Positions 3,799 to 64,000 of a stretch of 64,000 nucleotides of DNA are shown here, piece after piece. The stretch comes from Candidatus Omnitrophota bacterium (GTDB lineage Bacteria; Omnitrophota; Gorgyraeia; Duberdicusellales; 4484-171). Location of the stretch: NCBI GenBank assembly GCA_016935525.1, contig JAFGQU010000013.1, positions 26,523-90,522 on the forward strand, in the 5' to 3' direction. How positions within the stretch are numbered: position 1 is the first letter of the stretch; every line of letters starts with the position of its first letter. The notes beneath the pieces are model-generated. The model had not been told where the DNA came from and made no database searches. It saw nothing but the letters and a program-made list of their open reading frames with translations. Both the position numbers and the translations under genes were made by a program.

Positions 3799-4959
3799 AT
3801 GCTTGTAGATTACGGTTTTACCGAAGAACAGAAAATGTTACGAGACCTATGCCGTCAGATCGCTGAAGAAAAGATCCGGCCGGTTTCACGCGAGCTCGAT
3901 GAAAAAGAAGAGTTCCCCTGGGATATCATCAAAGTGATGGCTCAGTCTGATCTGTTCGCGTTGTGTATTCCGGAGGCGTACGGCGGGATAGGCGGAAACC
4001 TTATGGACTTGGTGATCGCGACCGAAGAAATATCCCGGGTCGACGGCGGAGTCGCTACCTGTTATGCCGCGTCCTATTTGGGGATGTTCCCGATATTACT
4101 GTACGGGACCGAAGAACAAAAGAAAAAATATTTACCGGATATCGCCTCAGGTAAAAAACTCGCGGCATTCGGATTGACCGAACCGGAAGCCGGTTCTGAC
4201 GCGTCCGCGGTCAAGACGAGCGCGAAAAAACAAGGCGACAAATATATATTGAACGGAACGAAACATTTTATCACTAACGGCGGGGATGCCGAGGTATATA
4301 CGATCATTGCCGTGACGAATAAAGCTAAGGGCCCGCGGGGGATTTCGGCGTTTATTCTGGAAAAAGGGCAGGACGGGTTTACGTTCGGAAAAAAAGAGGA
4401 AAAACTGGGGATACGAGCGTCTTCGACCGGCGAACTTGTTTTTAATGACGTGGAAGTATCAAAAGATAACCTGTTAGGCGGTAAAGAAGGGCTGGGGTTT
4501 ATCGCGACGATGAAGACATTTGACCAGTCACGTCCCGGTGTCGCCGCACAAGCTGTCGGGATCGCGCAAGGGGCTCTGGAACTTGCGACCGCGTACGCTC
4601 ATACCCGGATACAGTTCGGTAAACCGATCACGTCGTTTCAGGGGATCCAGTGGATGCTCGCCGATATGGCGACAAAAGTCGAAGCCGCCCGCAGTCTGGT
4701 ATATGCTGCCGCGGCAATGGTCGATCGCGGGGTAAAAGATGTCGGCGGGGCAAGCGCGATGGCTAAGTTGTATGCGTCCGATATCGCCATGGAAGTCACG
4801 ACCGATGCCGTCCAGATCTACGGCGGGTACGGGTATATGCGTGACTATCCGGTTGAAAAGTTCATGCGTGACGCGAAGATCACTCAGATCTATGAAGGGA
4901 CTAACCAGATCCAGAAAAACATTATCGCTCTGAATCTCATCAAGAAATACACGAAATAA
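3799..4959 (+). CDS. acyl-CoA dehydrogenase (short/butyryl-chain type)
   Basis: 386 aa with canonical ACAD N-terminal, middle and C-terminal regions (GLTEPEAGSDA, YASDIAMEVTTDAVQIYGGYGY, FMRDAKITQIYEGTNQIQ). RBS AAAGGAGG upstream. Confidence 0.9.
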   Translation: MLVDYGFTEEQKMLRDLCRQIAEEKIRPVSRELDEKEEFPWDIIKVMAQSDLFALCIPEAYGGIGGNLMDLVIATEEISRVDGGVATCYAASYLGMFPILLYGTEEQKKKYLPDIASGKKLAAFGLTEPEAGSDASAVKTSAKKQGDKYILNGTKHFITNGGDAEVYTIIAVTNKAKGPRGISAFILEKGQDGFTFGKKEEKLGIRASSTGELVFNDVEVSKDNLLGGKEGLGFIATMKTFDQSRPGVAAQAVGIAQGALELATAYAHTRIQFGKPITSFQGIQWMLADMATKVEAARSLVYAAAAMVDRGVKDVGGASAMAKLYASDIAMEVTTDAVQIYGGYGYMRDYPVEKFMRDAKITQIYEGTNQIQKNIIALNLIKKYTK

Positions 4960-4984
4960 CAAACGATTATTTTGTATAGATGAT

Positions 4985-5018
4985 AAAAACCCTGGGGAAT
5001 CCCGGGGTTTTTGTTTTT
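4985..5018 (+). terminator. intrinsic terminator downstream of the acyl-CoA dehydrogenase gene
   Basis: AAAACCCTGGGGAATCCCGGGG hairpin followed by TTTTTGTTTTT. Confidence 0.55.
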
Positions 5019-6871: not shown

Positions 6872-6987
6872 GGGGATATGGCAATAAACCAGTCGATAGT
6901 CGACGGTCTATGGTCGATAGTATAGAAAAATAAAAACTAAATGCCAAAGACTAACGACCAACGACTCTATACGGAGCTTTTAAGAAG

Positions 6988-15982: not shown

Positions 15983-15993
15983 GAAATAGTTCG

Positions 15994-16076
15994 CGCGTTC
16001 ACCCGTGCTCGCGTTTCCCGCCACAGGCGGGATTCCCGTTCAAAAGAACGGGTACACGGGCGAACGGGAAAACGGG
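15994..16076. repeat. GC-rich nested palindromic element in the LPS cluster intergenic region
   Basis: Nested inverted repeats CGTTCACCCGTG/CACGGGCGAACG and GTTTCCCG/CGGGAAAAC around the hairpin CCCGTTC-AAAA-GAACGGG. Confidence 0.35.
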
Positions 16077-16098
16077 CTAACTCGACTATAGATTAAAT

Positions 16099-17924: not shown

Positions 17925-17930
17925 TGAAAA

Positions 17931-18100
17931 GTTACACGACACACGCCACACGCATGCCTGCTACGCAGGCCGTCACACGTTGCACGACACACGTCACATG
18001 TATTAATTCTTTCTCGACGTGTGACTATGTGACCTTGTGTCCTTGTGACTTGCCGAAGGCATACGTATGACGTGTGACCTTGTGACTATGTGACCTGCGT
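17931..18100. repeat. family-1 intergenic repeat element (GTCACA/TGTGAC octamer arrays), copy A
   Basis: Tandem NGTCACAN octamers followed by tandem NTGTGACN octamers, with embedded hairpins GCCTGCTACGCAGGC and TGCCGAAGGCA. Approximately the reverse complement of copy C at 44245-44408. Confidence 0.7.
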
Positions 18101-18103
18101 GTT

Positions 18104-21069: not shown

Positions 21070-21200
21070 TATCACTATTGTTAATATATACTTTTGAGTT
21101 TGTTTAAATAATTTTCAGAATAACCAATCACCAAACTGTCCAATTGATTTTACTTTATAAGGATGTCCGATTATTGAAATTTGATTATTGGTTATTGTTT

Positions 21201-21280
21201 CCCCCTAGGAATCGCCTTTCCCTTAGGCAGGCGATTCCAGGGACTCGGTCCCGGGAATTCTCCGAATTCCACGGGGGGGT
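21201..21280 (+). promoter_or_regulatory. structured 5' leader: three hairpins enclosed by a C5/G7 outer stem (4-way-junction-like), candidate metal-sensing riboswitch
   Basis: CCCCC...[GGAATCGCC-loop-GGCGATTCC][GGGAC-TCG-GTCCC][GGAATTC-TCC-GAATTCC]...GGGGGGG, immediately upstream of a Ni/Co transporter gene. Confidence 0.35.
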
Positions 21281-21302
21281 ATTGTTTCTTGGTTATTGGT
21301 GA

Positions 21303-26798: not shown

Positions 26799-26893
26799 AG
26801 ATGCAGATGATCGCTGATTTTGGATTCACACAGATGATCGCTGATATTATATCTGTGGCAATCTGTGATTCTCTGAATCTGTGATCATCAGCG
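26799..26893. repeat. family-2 intergenic repeat cluster (CAGATGATCGCTGAT / ATCTGTGATCATCAG units), locus E1
   Basis: Two forward units (GCAGATGATCGCTGAT, CACAGATGATCGCTGAT) and three ATCTGTG units in the opposite orientation within 95 nt. Confidence 0.6.
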
Positions 26894-26912
26894 TGAAGGA
26901 GCGAAGCGACGA

Positions 26913-34470: not shown

Positions 34471-34558
34471 TTGTGGTCACACGACACACGTCACAAGGTC
34501 ACACGTAAAGAAAACAGGTGATTTACCTGTGACGTGTGACTATGTGACTTTGTGACCC
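34471..34558. repeat. family-1 repeat element, copy B
   Basis: GGTCACACGACACACGTCACAAGGTCACACG, a 22-nt spacer, then TGTGACGTGTGACTATGTGACTTTGTGACC. Confidence 0.7.
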
Positions 34559-39606: not shown

Positions 39607-40373
39607 GTATTAAAACGTTAGTGTTAAGGACTGCCGGGATCAATTGTGACGCCGAAAGCGAATACGCCTTTCGCAGCTTAGGCTCCCAAGTCGACCGGCT
39701 GCATATTAACCGTCTTAAACAAAGAGTGTCGCTCACCGATTATCAGATCATCTGTGTGCCGGGGGGGTTTAGTTATGGAGACGATCTGGGTGCCGGTAAG
39801 ATATTTTCTTTAGAACTGTTGTTGTGGTTTAAAGACCAGTTACAGCAGTTTTTAAAAAAAGACGGGTTGATCATCGGTATTTGTAACGGATTCCAGGTGC
39901 TGGTGAAAACCGGGATACTTCCTGATACCGATTTTGTCCAGAAAGTGACTTTGACCGATAACGATTCCGGACGGTTTGAAGACCGTTGGATCCACTTGAA
40001 AGTCCCCCAGGATCCTTCTCATCCGGCTCGGCGGATATGGCTTAAAAGTCTGCCTGAGATCATCCAGTTGCCGGTAGCTCACGGCGAAGGTAAATTCTTT
40101 GCGAACGACAAAGTTTTAGATACAATAAACGGATCGGAACAGGTCGCGTTACGTTACGTGGATGCGTCCGGGAAAGTGTCCGGGTATCCGGCTAACCCTA
40201 ACGGGTCTTTAGAAAGTATCGCCGGGATCACCGATACCCAGGGTAAGGTGTTCGGGTTGATGCCTCACCCGGAAAGATGTTTCCAGGAACACCATCATCC
40301 TTTCTGGCAGCAGAAAGAGAAAGTCACTTTTGGCCGTAAAATTTTTCAAAACGCCATCGACTATTTCAAATGA
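39603..40373 (+). CDS. purQ: phosphoribosylformylglycinamidine synthase glutaminase subunit
   Basis: Class I GATase: GICNGFQVL (Cys nucleophile), HPE motif. Confidence 0.85.
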   Translation: MSIKTLVLRTAGINCDAESEYAFRSLGSQVDRLHINRLKQRVSLTDYQIICVPGGFSYGDDLGAGKIFSLELLLWFKDQLQQFLKKDGLIIGICNGFQVLVKTGILPDTDFVQKVTLTDNDSGRFEDRWIHLKVPQDPSHPARRIWLKSLPEIIQLPVAHGEGKFFANDKVLDTINGSEQVALRYVDASGKVSGYPANPNGSLESIAGITDTQGKVFGLMPHPERCFQEHHHPFWQQKEKVTFGRKIFQNAIDYFK

Positions 40374-44244: not shown

Positions 44245-44408
44245 TCACGTCACAAAGTCACATAGTCACAAGGTCACACGTGTGCCTTCGGCATGTCACA
44301 AGGACACATAGACACATGGTCACAAGTAAAGAGAAAAATACGTGTGACGTGTGTCGTGCAACGTGTGACAAGCCTGCTGGGTAGGCTTTCGTGTGTCGTG
44401 TGACTTAT
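44245..44408. repeat. family-1 repeat element, copy C (longest)
   Basis: CACGTCACAAAGTCACATAGTCACAAGGTCACACG - TGCCTTCGGCA - TGTCACAAGGACACATAGACACATGGTCACAAG ... GTGTGACGTGTGTCGTGCAACGTGTGAC - AAGCCTGCTGGGTAGGCTT - TCGTGTGTCGTGTGAC. Reverse complement of copy A. Confidence 0.7.
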
Positions 44409-44423
44409 ATGGATATTAATGTT

Positions 44424-48993: not shown

Positions 48994-49757
48994 AGATAGA
49001 TACTACGGAGATCATTGTCTTACGGGAAAAGGTAGATAAGATTTCTGCGGATGCGGTCGTCTCTGTTCCCGGACAGTTTACCGATGAGGAGAAGGTACGT
49101 AGATTTACTTTCGATTCTTTAGGCGAAGCGCAGAAAAAAAAGAATAAAATCGTTGTGTTTTCCCTGTTGCCAGAGGAGCCCACAGGGTTAGGCTCCGGTA
49201 TCGTATCCAAAATAATGGCGCAGGAAGTCTTACGGTATGTGCGGACCGCTACACCGGATTTCTCGAAAATCATCTTTGTCGTATCTACCGAAGAGATGCG
49301 TTTGCTTTTCGAAAAGAATATGTATGGGTATCTGCACCATATGACTCACACCTTGAGCCGGGGCCCGTATCTTACCGTAGACGCGATCATCGAATATGGC
49401 GGCGGTATCGTGATGGTCGAACGGAGTAACCCTCCCCTGGGGTGGGCATTACCCGGGGGGTTCGTCGATTACGGCGAAAGCGCCGAAGATGCCGTATGCC
49501 GGGAGGTGAAAGAAGAGACACATCTTGATTTCGAAAATATAACACAGTTTAAGGTGTATTCTCAACCCTCACGGGATCCCCGATTCCATACGGTTTCGGT
49601 AGTCTTTTATGGGGTCGCCCGCGGCGAACCGACGGCTGATTCCGACGCCAAAGGGGTCGGGGTATTTGATTTAGATGAACTGCCTTCAATAATCGCTTTT
49701 GATCATCGTCAGATCATTGAAGATTATAGAAAATTAAAAATGAAAGATGAAAAATAA
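48990..49757 (+). CDS. NUDIX hydrolase with uncharacterised ~125-aa N-terminal domain
   Basis: Nudix box GGFVDYGESAEDAVCREVKEETHL. The N-terminal domain is not confidently assignable. Confidence 0.7.
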   Translation: MKIDTTEIIVLREKVDKISADAVVSVPGQFTDEEKVRRFTFDSLGEAQKKKNKIVVFSLLPEEPTGLGSGIVSKIMAQEVLRYVRTATPDFSKIIFVVSTEEMRLLFEKNMYGYLHHMTHTLSRGPYLTVDAIIEYGGGIVMVERSNPPLGWALPGGFVDYGESAEDAVCREVKEETHLDFENITQFKVYSQPSRDPRFHTVSVVFYGVARGEPTADSDAKGVGVFDLDELPSIIAFDHRQIIEDYRKLKMKDEK

Positions 49758-49843
49758 AAAATGTTAATTTTTATTTCCAGTTTTCATCTTTAACTTTCTT
49801 CGATTTTTTATTTTTAATATTTAATTTTTCATATTTATTTGCT
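49725..49843. repeat. AT-rich ~100-nt element (family 3), copy 1, spanning the nudix 3' end and the recG leader
   Basis: ATTAAAAATGAAAGATGAAAAATAAAAAATG...TTTTTTATTTTTAATATTTAATTTTTCATATTT. Shares ~85% identity over the first ~33 nt with 62175-62268 and shares the TTTTTTATYTTTAATWTTTAAYWTTTAATTTT block. Confidence 0.45.
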
Positions 49844-55622: not shown

Positions 55623-55627
55623 CGTTC

Positions 55628-55720
55628 GCCGATGATCACAGAAGGAAAGACACAGATGATCACTGATGGAAATATCTGCGATAGTCTGTGTATATTCAAA
55701 ATCTGTGCTCATCTGTGCAT
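55628..55720. repeat. family-2 repeat cluster, locus E3
   Basis: GATGATCACAG, CACAGATGATCACTGAT, ATCTGCGAT, TCTGTGTAT, AATCTGTGCTCATCTGTGCAT between fabH and fabD. Confidence 0.55.
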
Positions 55721-55741
55721 GTCGAACGAAGTGAGGCAGAG

Positions 55742-56647
55742 ATGAATGCGATGATTTTTCCCGGACAGGGAGCTCAATATGCAGGGATGGGTAAGAGCCT
55801 TTATGATAGTTTTGAAAAAGCGCGGGGCGTATTTACCGCGATAGATGAAGTCCTTGGTTTTAAAATATCCGATATTTGTTTTGGCGGGTCTGAAGAAGAA
55901 TTGAAAAACACCCGGAATCAGCAGTTAGCTATTTTAACGGTCAGTCTTGCCGCATTTGAAGTGTTCAAGGATACCTCAGCTTTGGATATTACCTATTTTT
56001 CCGGGTTGAGTTTAGGAGAATACACCTGTCTTTATGCGGCCGGTGTCCTTGCCCTTTCTGAGGTCGCCCGGTTAGTCAACGTACGGGCCCAGGCTATGGA
56101 AGATGCGGCAAAGCTGAACCCTTCTACGATGCTTGCCGTAATCGGCTGGAATAGGGAACAACTGGTTGCCAAAGAGGGATTAGGGTTTTATGTCGCCAAC
56201 ATAAATGCTCTTACTCAGATCGCAGTCTCGGTAAGTGCCCAGAAGAAAGCGGAAGTAGCCGAGGCTTTGACTAAAGAGGGGGCAAAAGTAATAGAGTTAG
56301 CGGTAAGTGGGGGATTCCATTCTCCGTTTATGGCCCAGGCCAAAGCTCCGCTTGCCGAGATCATCGGATCACTTGATTTTCAGGACGCGAAGATCCCGAT
56401 TGTGAGCAATGTAACGGCCAAGGCGCATACCAATGCCGAGGAAATCAAACAGAACCTCGTTACCCAGATGGTATCTCCGGTCCTTTGGAACGGATGTGTA
56501 AATTTTATGGCTCAAACCGGGGTCGATACGTTTGTGGAAACCGGACCTTCCCGGGTATTGCGGGGATTAATGCGGAAAATCAACTCTCAGTTAAAAGTGA
56601 TAAATATTGAGAAGAAAGAAGATATTGAAAATCTCACTATTTCTTAA
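55742..56647 (+). CDS. fabD: malonyl CoA-ACP transacylase
   Basis: MIFPGQGAQY and GLSLGEY active-site Ser motif. ATG 55742 after the GAGGCAGAG RBS. Confidence 0.9.
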   Translation: MNAMIFPGQGAQYAGMGKSLYDSFEKARGVFTAIDEVLGFKISDICFGGSEEELKNTRNQQLAILTVSLAAFEVFKDTSALDITYFSGLSLGEYTCLYAAGVLALSEVARLVNVRAQAMEDAAKLNPSTMLAVIGWNREQLVAKEGLGFYVANINALTQIAVSVSAQKKAEVAEALTKEGAKVIELAVSGGFHSPFMAQAKAPLAEIIGSLDFQDAKIPIVSNVTAKAHTNAEEIKQNLVTQMVSPVLWNGCVNFMAQTGVDTFVETGPSRVLRGLMRKINSQLKVINIEKKEDIENLTIS

Positions 56648-56700
56648 TCTGTGATCATCAGTCCGGTCCGAAGGACCGTATCTGCGATTGTCTGCGTATA
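56646..56700. repeat. family-2 repeat units, locus E4
   Basis: AATCTGTGATCATCAG (identical to a unit at 26873-26888) and TATCTGCGATTGTCTGCGTAT, with internal hairpin GGTCCGAAGGACC. Confidence 0.5.
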
Positions 56701-56713
56701 AAAGGAGGAAATA

Positions 56714-61136: not shown

Positions 61137-62204
61137 ATGAGTAAATATAGTATCGCGGTGGTTGGAGGAGACGGGACCGGGCCGGAGGTGGTAAAAGAAG
61201 GATTGAAAGTCCTTAAGGCTACCGCTTCCGTATGCGGGTTTACCTACGAAACTGTCGATTATGATATCGGAGGGGAAAGATATTTAAAAACGAACGAGAT
61301 CCTTCCCGATTCCGTGGTCGAAGGACTGAAAAGGTGCGATGCGATCTATTTGGGAGCAATTGGCGATCCGCGGGTTAAACCGGGCATCTTGGAAAAAGGG
61401 ATATTGTTGAAACTCAGGTTTACTCTCGATCAATATGTGAATCTTCGGCCGGTGGTTTTGTACGATAAACGGTTTTGTCCTCTGAAGGATAAAAAAGAAG
61501 AAGATATTGATTTTGTAGTGGTGAGGGAAAATACCGAAGGGCTCTATTGTGGAGCCGGGGGATTCCTTAAAAAAGGGACAAAAGATGAAGTCGCGATCCA
61601 GGAAAGTATTAATACCTATAAAGGAGCTGAACGGGTGATCCGGTTTGCTTTCGAATATGCCCGCAGAAGAAATAAAAGGAAAAAAGTCACTCTTTGCGGG
61701 AAGACCAACGTGCTGACCTATGCGTTTGATCTGTGGGAGCGGACGTTTTACGCGGTCGCGAAAGAATATCCCGATATCCAGGCCGATTACGCTCATGTCG
61801 ATGCGACCTGTATGTGGATGGTCAAAAGTCCGGAATGGTTTGATGTGATTGTGACCGATAATATGTTCGGAGATATCATCACGGACCTGGGTGCGATGAT
61901 CCAGGGGGGGATGGGGATCGCGGCCGGAGGGAATATCAATCCGCAGGGGGTCTCCATGTTCGAACCCATCGGCGGGAGCGCTCCTAAATATACCGGGAAG
62001 AACGTGATCAATCCCCTGGCGGCAATATGCGCTGTAGGGATGTTATTAGACCAGATCGGCGAACAGGACGCCGGCCAAAGAATAGAGACTGCGGTGAAAA
62101 AAGTGGTAAAAGAGAAACTAGAAAGTTTTTCTGCCGGGAAAATGGGCTATTCTACGTCGGAAGTAGGAGATCTGGTCGCGGAATATATTAAAAATGAAAA
62201 ATGA
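61137..62204 (+). CDS. leuB: 3-isopropylmalate dehydrogenase (isocitrate/isopropylmalate DH family)
   Basis: MSKYSIAVVGGDGTGPEV N-terminus and NMFGDIITDLGA signature. Confidence 0.8.
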   Translation: MSKYSIAVVGGDGTGPEVVKEGLKVLKATASVCGFTYETVDYDIGGERYLKTNEILPDSVVEGLKRCDAIYLGAIGDPRVKPGILEKGILLKLRFTLDQYVNLRPVVLYDKRFCPLKDKKEEDIDFVVVRENTEGLYCGAGGFLKKGTKDEVAIQESINTYKGAERVIRFAFEYARRRNKRKKVTLCGKTNVLTYAFDLWERTFYAVAKEYPDIQADYAHVDATCMWMVKSPEWFDVIVTDNMFGDIITDLGAMIQGGMGIAAGGNINPQGVSMFEPIGGSAPKYTGKNVINPLAAICAVGMLLDQIGEQDAGQRIETAVKKVVKEKLESFSAGKMGYSTSEVGDLVAEYIKNEK

Positions 62205-62268
62205 AAAACAAAAAAGGGTTATTCTTTTTTTCTATATTTTTTATCTTTAATTTTTAACATTTAATTTT
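62175..62268. repeat. AT-rich element (family 3), copy 2, spanning the leuB 3' end and the asd leader
   Basis: ATTAAAAATGAAAAATGAAAAACAAAAAAG...TTTTTTATCTTTAATTTTTAACATTTAATTTT. See copy 1. Confidence 0.45.
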
Positions 62269-63294: not shown

Positions 63295-63380
63295 GGTCAC
63301 ACGACACATAGACACACGTCACATGTTTTTGCTTTCTGGTTTTTACGTGTGACTCTGTGACCATGTGACTTTGTGACTAT
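63295..63380. repeat. family-1 repeat element, copy D (intergenic part)
   Basis: GGTCACACGACACATAGACACACGTCACATG, a T-rich spacer, then ACGTGTGACTCTGTGACCATGTGACTTTGTGACT, immediately before the truA ATG. Confidence 0.65.
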
Positions 63381-63384
63381 CTAC

Positions 63385-64000
63385 ATGAAGAACATACTAT
63401 TAAGATTGGAATATGACGGAAGTGATTATTTTGGATGGCAGATCCAGTCCGAAAAAAAGTCACACGGCACACGACATACGACACACGTGAAGAGCGAAAA
63501 AGCCAAAACAGTGCAGGGTGAGGTGGAAAAGGCGATAGAAAAGCTTTTTCGTCAAAAGGTAAAGTTGATCTATGCCGGCCGGACCGATCGCGGCGTACAT
63601 GCCAAAGATCAAGTCTTGAATTTTTTCGTCGATACCACCATCCCTATTGCCAATATAAAAGGCGCGCTGAATAGTTTTTTACCCGGAGATATCCGCGTGA
63701 AACGGGTAAAGAAAGTATCTGATGATTTCCATGCCCGGTTCAGCGTTTCAACGAAGATATACCGGTACCGTATCCTTAACGTAAAAGAACCTTCGGTGTT
63801 TGAACGTACTCGTTCCTGGTGGGTGCCCGATCCACTCGATCTTAAAGTTATGCAGTCGGTCGCCAAAAAGCTTATCGGATATAAAGACCGTAGCCTTTTT
63901 GCGAAACAGCCGGACCTTTATCATGACTGCCGCCGAAGGATCTTTGCCATACATATTAAGAAAAAAAGTCCGTTTGTTATTATCGATATTGAAGCTGACG
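63385..64000 (+). CDS. truA: tRNA pseudouridine(38-40) synthase TruA (3' end outside the window), with an in-frame repeat-derived insertion
   Basis: MKNILLRLEYDGSDYFGWQIQ...YAGRTDRGVHA (catalytic Asp)...FHARFS...YRYRI. No stop before position 64000. Codons 63459-63489 (SHGTRHTTHV) are a family-1 repeat arm. Confidence 0.85.
   Translation, partial: MKNILLRLEYDGSDYFGWQIQSEKKSHGTRHTTHVKSEKAKTVQGEVEKAIEKLFRQKVKLIYAGRTDRGVHAKDQVLNFFVDTTIPIANIKGALNSFLPGDIRVKRVKKVSDDFHARFSVSTKIYRYRILNVKEPSVFERTRSWWVPDPLDLKVMQSVAKKLIGYKDRSLFAKQPDLYHDCRRRIFAIHIKKKSPFVIIDIEAD
63459..63489. repeat. family-1 repeat arm embedded in-frame inside truA
   Basis: GTCACACGGCACACGACATACGACACACGTG, heptad CACACG-type units identical in style to the left arms of copies A-D. 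Flanked by the imperfect direct repeat CGAAAAAAAG / CGAAAAAGCC. Confidence 0.6.

Follow-up and report, generated by a model that had tools for sequence, protein, structure and literature searches.

The window, by which we mean the whole 64,000-nucleotide stretch of Omnitrophota DNA analyzed here, carries four full copies and a half copy of a repeat that we denote family 1 and that we lean toward reading as a non-autonomous foldback element, MITE-like in its logic and with slippage-prone arms. Each copy probably represents the empty form of a mobile element that has so far been poorly described. The plan of family 1 consists of inverted arrays of 7- or 8-nt units (G[T/A]CACA plus one or two variable bases) around a short A-rich loop with the consensus start CGTAAAGAAAA, with nested GC mini-hairpins in some copies. 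The elements are 86–170 nt long, contain no ORF, and have arms of 3–8 subrepeats each, arranged as inverted arrays. Dispersal by copying is indicated by the likeness of copies A and C outside the repeats, the occurrence of two orientations, insertion at otherwise tight gene junctions, a loop common to copies from different MAGs, and contig breaks. The non-autonomous reading draws on small-ORF cassettes enclosed by arrays in other genomes and on the deletion derivatives of a sister family with the unit CACGAAG, which together provide a model for foldbacks without an ORF.

Two of the copies are composite. Copy A (17931–18100, minus strand) is a foldback of minus polarity that includes an outer left array (17931–17953), the mini-hairpin GCCTGCTACGCAGGC (17956–17970), an inner left array (17972–17999), the apical loop (18000–18018), an inner right array (18019–18049), the mini-hairpin TGCCGAAGGCA (18051–18061), and an outer right array (18066–18096). 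It is flanked by the stop codon of a polysaccharide deacetylase gene (17924) and the ATG of a heptosyltransferase gene (18104). Copy C (44245–44408, plus strand, plus polarity) comprises an outer left array (44249–44278), the UUCG mini-hairpin TGCCTTCGGCA (44283–44293), an inner left array (44295–44324), the loop GTAAAGAGAAAAATAC, an inner right array (44340–44369), the mini-hairpin AAGCCTGCTGGGTAGGCTT (44370–44388), and an outer right array (44390–44404); its flanks are the stop of the Sua5/LMW-phosphatase gene (44244) and the start of rpiB (44412 or 44427). The other two copies are simple foldbacks with four units in each arm. Copy B (34471–34558, plus strand), with the loop CGTAAAGAAAACAGGTGATTTACC, has unit lengths of 7, 7, 8, and 8 nt in linear order in both the left and the right arm and lies between the stop of an SNase-OB nuclease gene (34470) and the start of an M48 peptidase gene. 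Copy D (63295–63380, minus strand, minus polarity), the loop of which reads CGTAAAAACCAGAAAGC on the minus strand, lies between the stop of asd (63294) and the ATG of truA (63385). Within truA itself, a one-armed direct array on the plus strand (63459–63489; GTCACAC, GGCACAC, GACATAC, GACACAC) is in frame and encodes KSHGTRHTTHV, part of a 16-residue loop insertion in the alignment to E. coli TruA (1DJ0). A further full copy was found about 5.3 kb past the window end, directly after rodA, on a Logan contig from the same sample (L209) that overlaps the window end. This contig terminates within the fifth copy, which brings the tally to five full copies per about 69 kb, four of them in the window together with the half copy in truA, and indicates that the repeats break assemblies.

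A preliminary description of this DNA had reported arrays of octamers, in the order array, loop, complementary array, at these four loci and at 63459–63489, all four full copies being placed between stop and start codons and copy A being essentially the reverse complement of copy C. On reading the intervals, all coordinates hold, as do the placement and the kinship of A and C; the octamer period is only part of the picture, because the 30 unit spacings measure 8 nt in 18 cases and 7 nt in 12. The pattern GTCACANNGTCACA, allowing at most one mismatch, has 16 matches in the window against 0.07 expected, all confined to the four reported intervals, and none of 100 shuffles reached 16. In a census of 43 units, the core G[T/A]CACA is near-invariant, with T or A at position 2, the apparent conservation being inflated by the admission of only those units with no more than one core mismatch. 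The spacers between the cores differ (C, TA, AG, AA, TG, GA).

Family-1 copies share descent and were inserted in either orientation. Copy A (17925–18103, plus strand) is 87% identical over about 170 nt to the reverse complement of copy C (44245–44412), and the match takes in the non-periodic parts, namely, the apical loop and the mini-hairpins TGCCGAAGGCA/TGCCTTCGGCA and GCCTGCTACGCAGGC/GCCTACCCAGCAGGC. The mini-hairpin with a UUCG-type tetraloop is on the plus strand in copy C and on the minus strand in copy A. Copies B and D are simpler (about 90 nt) and have in common irregular sub-patterns, such as GGTCACACGACACA, as well as the loop start CGTAAAGAAAA. Loop polarity is evenly divided, with B and C pointing one way and A and D the opposite way. 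The number and order of units vary among copies and between the two arms. The linear 7, 7, 8, 8 order in both arms of copy B, which are therefore not mirror images, points to arms that evolve by slippage, each on its own side; given the uniform hexamer core, any left unit would be able to pair with any right unit.

Every copy in the window fills the stop-to-start gap of two co-directional genes, nearly all genes being encoded on the plus strand. In the stretch 2113–2600 (488 nt), nominally intergenic, we noticed by reading an apparent small ribosomal protein-like gene on the minus strand (about 2150–2340; MARKCAICGK...); if this assignment is right, the genes in the window are not all on the plus strand. 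For comparison, 80 related loci with conserved gene order were recovered with PurL (46–64% identity). The sua5-rpiB junction, occupied by copy C in the window, spans 0–40 nt in about 24 relatives, and the SNase and M48 genes, separated by copy B in the window, overlap in the relative L117. Because the orthologous junctions are tight, the window copies are lineage-specific insertions. Downstream of A, C, and D, the genes have no recognisable Shine-Dalgarno sequence left. At the four junctions, read in element orientation, we see neither a target-site duplication, for which the preliminary description had proposed a search, nor a target motif in common, a weak result with four copies. Of those window ORFs that were inspected, none resembled a transposase.

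The family extends beyond this genome. A scan for runs of three GTCACANN units, with each species represented by a single genome, yielded at least 115 loci; among the matches listed, MAGs of Omnitrophota, Bacteroidota, and Planctomycetota dominate, and many are in hairpin arrangement. Copies with the loop start CGTAAAGAAAA are present also in the MAGs CAZABB01 (L022, L091) and JACQXZ01 (L098, L101). In Bacteroidota, GTCACA/TGTGAC arrays bracket a gene for a “four helix bundle” protein (PF05635/TIGR02436; L028), and the same arrangement was reached independently via protein homologues at two further loci (L197, L199). Other PF05635 genes are bracketed by different units, AATTGATA in L096, GTTCATAAA in L103, and TCGTTAC in L285. 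Two other small genes are enclosed by array pairs spaced about 450 bp, namely, a GxxExxY gene of the PD-(D/E)XK kind between CACGAAG arrays (L196; TIGR04256, PF13366) and a 95-residue GIY-YIG gene (L160; PF01541). Three independently fetched GxxExxY homologues (L211, L218, L290) are likewise embedded in CACGAAG/CTTCGTG arrays, and the GxxExxY cassettes of this CACGAAG family come from Planctomycetota. An array of period 6–10 lies within 120 nt of 11 of the 12 such small ORFs, compared with 116 of 751 background genes, and arrays on both sides were found for 8 of the 12 compared with 8 of the 751, proportions that are biased upward since several of the 12 ORFs were found via arrays or are homologous to array-flanked seeds. 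Arrays were paired by shared 6-mer matching; TRF with strict unit matching missed most elements. At three further loci from Prevotellaceae/Bacteroidaceae MAGs (L056, 1010–1621; L073, 4873–5283; L085, 406–1041), GTCACA/TGTGAC arrays bracket AT-rich non-coding segments of 150–600 bp that contain inverted repeats but lack a convincing ORF; these segments might be cassettes in decay or cargo of another kind.

How a cassette can lose its ORF is apparent in the CACGAAG family, where ORF-less hairpins adjoin the GxxExxY cassettes. The loop of these hairpins joins the opening codons of the ORF (ATCAATTGTCT) directly to its last bases (TTAACTTCG), that is, it holds GxxExxY codons 4–8 and the 3' end of the ORF. 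Thus, the ORF-less hairpins are internal-deletion derivatives of the cassettes. For the GTCACA unit, PF05635 cassettes were found only in Bacteroidota, and because this is another phylum, the common unit could be due to convergence. Neither the window nor about 1.2 Mb of the relatives' loci yielded an ORF-bearing GTCACA cassette or a GIY-YIG gene; narrow HMMs derived from 120 homologues each of PF05635 and GxxExxY detected neither gene there or in 59 viral contigs, and a local iterative PF05635 search with two seeds gave nothing new. The searchable literature yielded no description of array-bracketed small ORFs or of their link to PF05635, GxxExxY, and GIY-YIG. Many of the PF05635 and GxxExxY homologues (P0001–P0120, P0241–P0360) are on contigs of 0.5–3 kb, and for GxxExxY there are more than 8000 proteins at E<1e-10, those listed being 76–100% identical to the query; short contigs and abundance fit multi-copy, repeat-flanked genes that break assemblies. 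In L285–L288 (770–990), spacer lengths differ between samples by multiples of 7 nt, the gene after PF05635 starting at 992, 978, 971, or 985 in the four samples, which is a copy-number polymorphism of the CTCGTTA heptamer within a natural population.

Three rival explanations keep appreciable weight. According to the first, which we consider improbable, these are in-situ simple-sequence repeats: slippage favours 7- to 8-nt units, templated quasi-palindrome correction copies units from arm to arm, nothing is mobile, and the likeness between loci reflects a slippage-prone motif. The window contains at least seven (about ten) other unit sequences in an intergenic array-loop-inverse-array design, including AGTCGAT, CCCGT/ACGGG, CAGATGATC, AAAATGA/ATTTTTA, and CCAAT/ATTGG. 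Tandem arrays in 1.23 Mb comprising the related loci and the window are strongly concentrated at period 7 (73 arrays, whereas 27 have period 6 and 17 have period 8), and 72 different units were counted. Over-represented heptamers, with inverted pairs and copies inside genes, are known from Xanthomonas and Nostoc (PMC4692102), and that paper cites Mrazek 2007 for polymerase slippage as the cause. The 7-nt steps between samples and the non-mirrored arms of copy B speak for slippage as well.

In-frame arrays lead in the same direction, for they recur at identical protein-loop sites across lineages with unrelated units, so arrays can arise in situ without an element. In the PurQ loop after RWVYL, in-frame direct arrays are found in L118 (13289–13318), L119 (4355–4436), L136 (13323–13354), L137 (13402–13431), and L162 (about 4880–5010). 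Their units are lineage-specific (ACGTCCC, CAGAAAC/AGAGAGG, ACGAGCA, AGGTGTC, and GGGGCAAG/GGCACAGA), and relative to typical loop lengths they add an estimated 4–40 residues, the most in L162; the PurQ loop of the window (39969–40080) is 6 residues above typical, without a clear array. The TruA loop after GWQIQ varies from 29 to 59 residues among the measurable, Omnitrophota-dominated TruA homologues; the best named homologues of the window TruA come from Candidatus Omnitrophota, to which the organism is assigned. In purL of L128 (2903–3003), the full succession of array, GC hairpin, and inverse array (ATACTCG...CCGCCTGCCGGACGGGCAGGC...ATCGAGG) lies in frame directly after the conserved WSEHCxHK. 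Large pur gaps of the relatives gave no evidence of cassettes, their sizes being those of ordinary pathway genes (purC, purF). Against slippage as the sole process, the identity of A and C spans the non-periodic mini-hairpins and loop in opposite orientation, the loop start CGTAAAGAAAA is common to B, D, and copies from other MAGs, and the ORF-less CACGAAG copies are deletion derivatives of ORF cassettes. Slippage accounts for the dynamics of the arms but not for dispersal.

The second rival, which we judge unlikely, takes up a suggestion of the preliminary description, namely, that the arrays are sites for a dimeric DNA-binding protein. They would be bound cooperatively by a protein that recognises a specific DNA or RNA sequence and would serve the host in regulation, chromosome organisation, or control of the element; candidates are a ribbon-helix-helix (RHH) dimer (MetJ-like or omega-like) or the four-helix-bundle protein itself. 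The near-invariant hexamer core with varying 1- to 2-nt spacers fits this suggestion and is not predicted by pure slippage. The 7- to 8-bp period resembles that of RHH operators, as MetJ metboxes are 8 bp and omega-protein heptads 7 bp, and bAvd, a PF05635 relative, binds nucleic acids. Furthermore, heptanucleotide families of Geobacter metallireducens, “mostly in pairs,” are annotated as putative global-regulator sites (PMC2700814). However, at least seven other units in the 64-kb window and dozens in the relatives (72 distinct 7/8-nt units) have the same architecture, and each would need a protein of its own. The sites are operon-internal, from stop to start, rather than at promoters, and promoter-like sites show no excess in the scanned window interval; some arrays are in frame within genes; and the conserved core is equally well explained by pairing between left and right units. 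RHH operator arrays occupy promoter sites with the cognate repressor nearby; neither was found at the family-1 copies, and no small regulator gene adjoins them.

The third rival, also of low probability, holds that the copies are host-beneficial RNA elements, intercistronic hairpins selected for differential mRNA stability or processing, as REP/BIME in E. coli. All copies are intercistronic between co-directional genes, and all four are predicted to fold into long interrupted hairpins, with dinucleotide-shuffle z-scores from −3.9 to −5.0 that are equal on both strands. For copy A, the predicted RNA MFE is −60.7 on the plus and −70.0 on the minus strand; copy B has an MFE of −39.1 (z = −4.7 on the plus and −5.0 on the minus strand) and copy D of −32.2 (z = −4.2 and −4.6, respectively). 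The missing U-tract makes transcriptional read-through expected, and the stems of rRNA intervening sequences (IVSs), comparable in design, are cut by RNase III (PMC4990558). Yet the orientation relative to transcription is 2:2, folding energy gives the sense strand no advantage, relatives run the same operons without the spacer, and the loss of Shine-Dalgarno context for downstream genes looks like a cost rather than a design. Two simpler proposals are ruled out, a sense-strand-specific RNA structure by energies that are equal or mixed between strands and by the presence of both orientations, and an intrinsic terminator by the absence of a T-run after the right arm in all four copies. Sense-strand terminator-like sites were absent at A and B, the only copies inside the scanned interval. 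The window contains no match to Rfam at gathering thresholds or in a tRNA scan and no rRNA.

Cyanobacterial STRR are heptamer repeats of the same general kind, reportedly described by Mazel in 1990 and Vioque in 1997. The units known from heterocystous cyanobacteria (CCCCAGT, TTGGTCA, CAACAGT) are not those of family 1. STRR and heptamer SSRs of Xanthomonas (GGGAATC), Nostoc (GGGGAYT), and Geobacter metallireducens resemble family 1 in having tandem 7-nt units at many, mostly intergenic loci, frequent convergent or inverted pairs that form stem-loops, occasional intragenic copies, and copy numbers that vary among close relatives (PMC4692102, PMC2700814). With 12 of 30 spacings at 7 nt and five loci in 69 kb, family 1 is a heptamer array in this sense. 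It differs in the phylum (Omnitrophota), the unit G[T/A]CACA, the mixed 7/8 period, and the copying, as a whole, of a composite of fixed design that includes a conserved loop and nested mini-hairpins; the STRR literature that we found makes no link to ORF-bearing cassettes. The preliminary description had not recognised the repeat as a described family. This is fair for family 1 itself, of which the searchable literature yielded no description; the general kind, heptamer arrays often in inverted pairs, has already been described (in cyanobacteria, Xanthomonas, Geobacter, and Coxiella IVSs).

rRNA IVSs, as in Leptospira and Coxiella, have terminal inverted repeats that form a stem, and the enclosed loop can contain a small ORF, PF05635 being the protein family of the ORF-bearing 23S rRNA IVSs. 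The Coxiella IVS contains 2–3 tandem heptamers (GACAGAT) of varying copy number beside its PF05635 ORF, and its near-perfect stem of 28 bp (PMC4990558) contrasts with the family-1 stems broken every 6–10 bp. Family 1, moreover, is intercistronic in mRNA rather than located in helix 25/45 of 23S rRNA and has no ORF. REP/BIME, ERIC, Correia/NEMIS, and RUP elements are, like family 1, short non-coding hairpins dispersed between genes in either orientation and co-transcribed. The arms of family 1 are subrepeat arrays rather than a unique inverted repeat, and its copies, at 86–170 nt, have no GTAG-type head, whereas REP is an imperfect palindrome of 20–40 nt; the ORF-bearing relatives of family 1 encode small nucleases or the four-helix-bundle protein, not RAYT or an IS transposase. 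The MITE/REP-like label of the preliminary description accordingly divides: comparison with REP/BIME, ERIC, and Correia gave no membership, there being no REP-type short palindrome and, among the inspected window ORFs, no RAYT or transposase in sight. The MITE-like half fits in outline, in view of the dispersal in both orientations, insertion at tight junctions, related copies in other genomes, and small non-coding form with terminal inverted repeats, and the mobile-element reading gains from the origin by internal deletion seen in the sister CACGAAG family.

Rickettsia palindromic elements (RPE) resemble the arrays in truA, purQ, and purL as in-frame insertions that add a surface-loop peptide. 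RPE, however, are unique-sequence palindromes of 100–150 bp without subrepeats, whereas the intragenic form here is one arm, a direct array. By architectural analogy, family 1 most resembles the eukaryotic Foldback (FB) transposons, with their long inverted arms of short tandem subrepeats and variable arm length, and, as among the array elements, the loop is short or missing in most FB copies and contains coding sequence in a minority. The likeness is confined to architecture, as the domain of life, the subrepeats (10–31 bp in FB), and the proteins differ.

Under the foldback reading, the window copies would be empty derivatives, or landing pads, of an ORF-bearing cassette. A factor acting in trans might copy them to new sites, perhaps through nuclease-triggered repair with the arrays as homology, and the arms would lengthen or shorten through slipped-strand mispairing. 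Only insertions that spare ORFs and do not terminate transcription would survive, which could produce the exact stop-to-start placement. This placement and the in-frame surface-loop arrays are what purifying selection would leave of random insertions or in-situ expansions. In polycistronic mRNA, the copies would form a long interrupted hairpin and, by analogy with rRNA IVSs, might plausibly serve as an RNase III substrate or a 3'-end stabiliser, presumably as a side effect rather than as the reason for the existence of the element. With stems broken every 6–10 bp, the hairpins are expected to be poor canonical RNase III substrates.

More tentatively, STRR-like arrays, ORF-bearing rRNA IVSs, and the PF05635, GxxExxY, and small GIY-YIG genes might form one widespread, undescribed class of mobile prokaryotic foldbacks, a possibility that we regard as doubtful. 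In such a class, the coding capacity of the autonomous forms would be limited to a small nuclease or an Avd-like nucleic-acid-binding protein, and many ORF-less derivatives would occupy operon junctions and protein loops in Omnitrophota, Planctomycetota, Bacteroidota, and probably cyanobacteria. For 35 years, short heptamer arrays have been on record with no explanation, and the PF05635 and GxxExxY families include very many genes of unexplained role. If array-armed foldbacks are empty cassettes, the repeats acquire an origin, the orphan proteins gain a function that can be tested, namely, to bind or cut their own arms, and rRNA IVSs become a special case of a general element; the link between array hairpins and cassettes, if general, would tie together three features of bacterial genomes that have long lacked an explanation. 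For practical purposes, array elements break metagenome assemblies (as in L209 and at the many PF05635/GxxExxY homologues on very short contigs), add peptides to the conserved enzymes TruA, PurQ, and PurL, and part genes from their ribosome-binding context, so that annotation and operon prediction are affected in Omnitrophota and related phyla.

Several further arrays were recorded. Those in the window with array-loop-inverse-array design and other units are located at 6872–6987, 15983–16098, 21070–21302, 49726–49840, and 62190–62268, with the units AGTCGAT/CCAACGA, CCCGT/AACGGGCA (with a CCCGCCACAGGCGGG mini-hairpin), CCAAT/GATTATT-ATTGG, and AAAATGA/ATTTTTA; the segment 60329–60399 holds direct arrays only (GCGTAAC, ACGAACG). 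A second dispersed family, with the unit CAGATGATC/GATCATCTG, has copies at 26799–26912, 55623–55687, and 56648–56713, two of which bracket a fabD-like gene (55688–56647) and one of which contains a GGTCCGAAGGACC mini-hairpin. A CAGAT-type array follows sua5 in the relative L120 (22540–22590). Finally, 59 IMG/VR contigs (L226–L284), some labelled as giant-virus MAGs, contain at least three consecutive GTCACANN units, and a few have long arrays, such as L275 (seven matches) and L263 (four matches).
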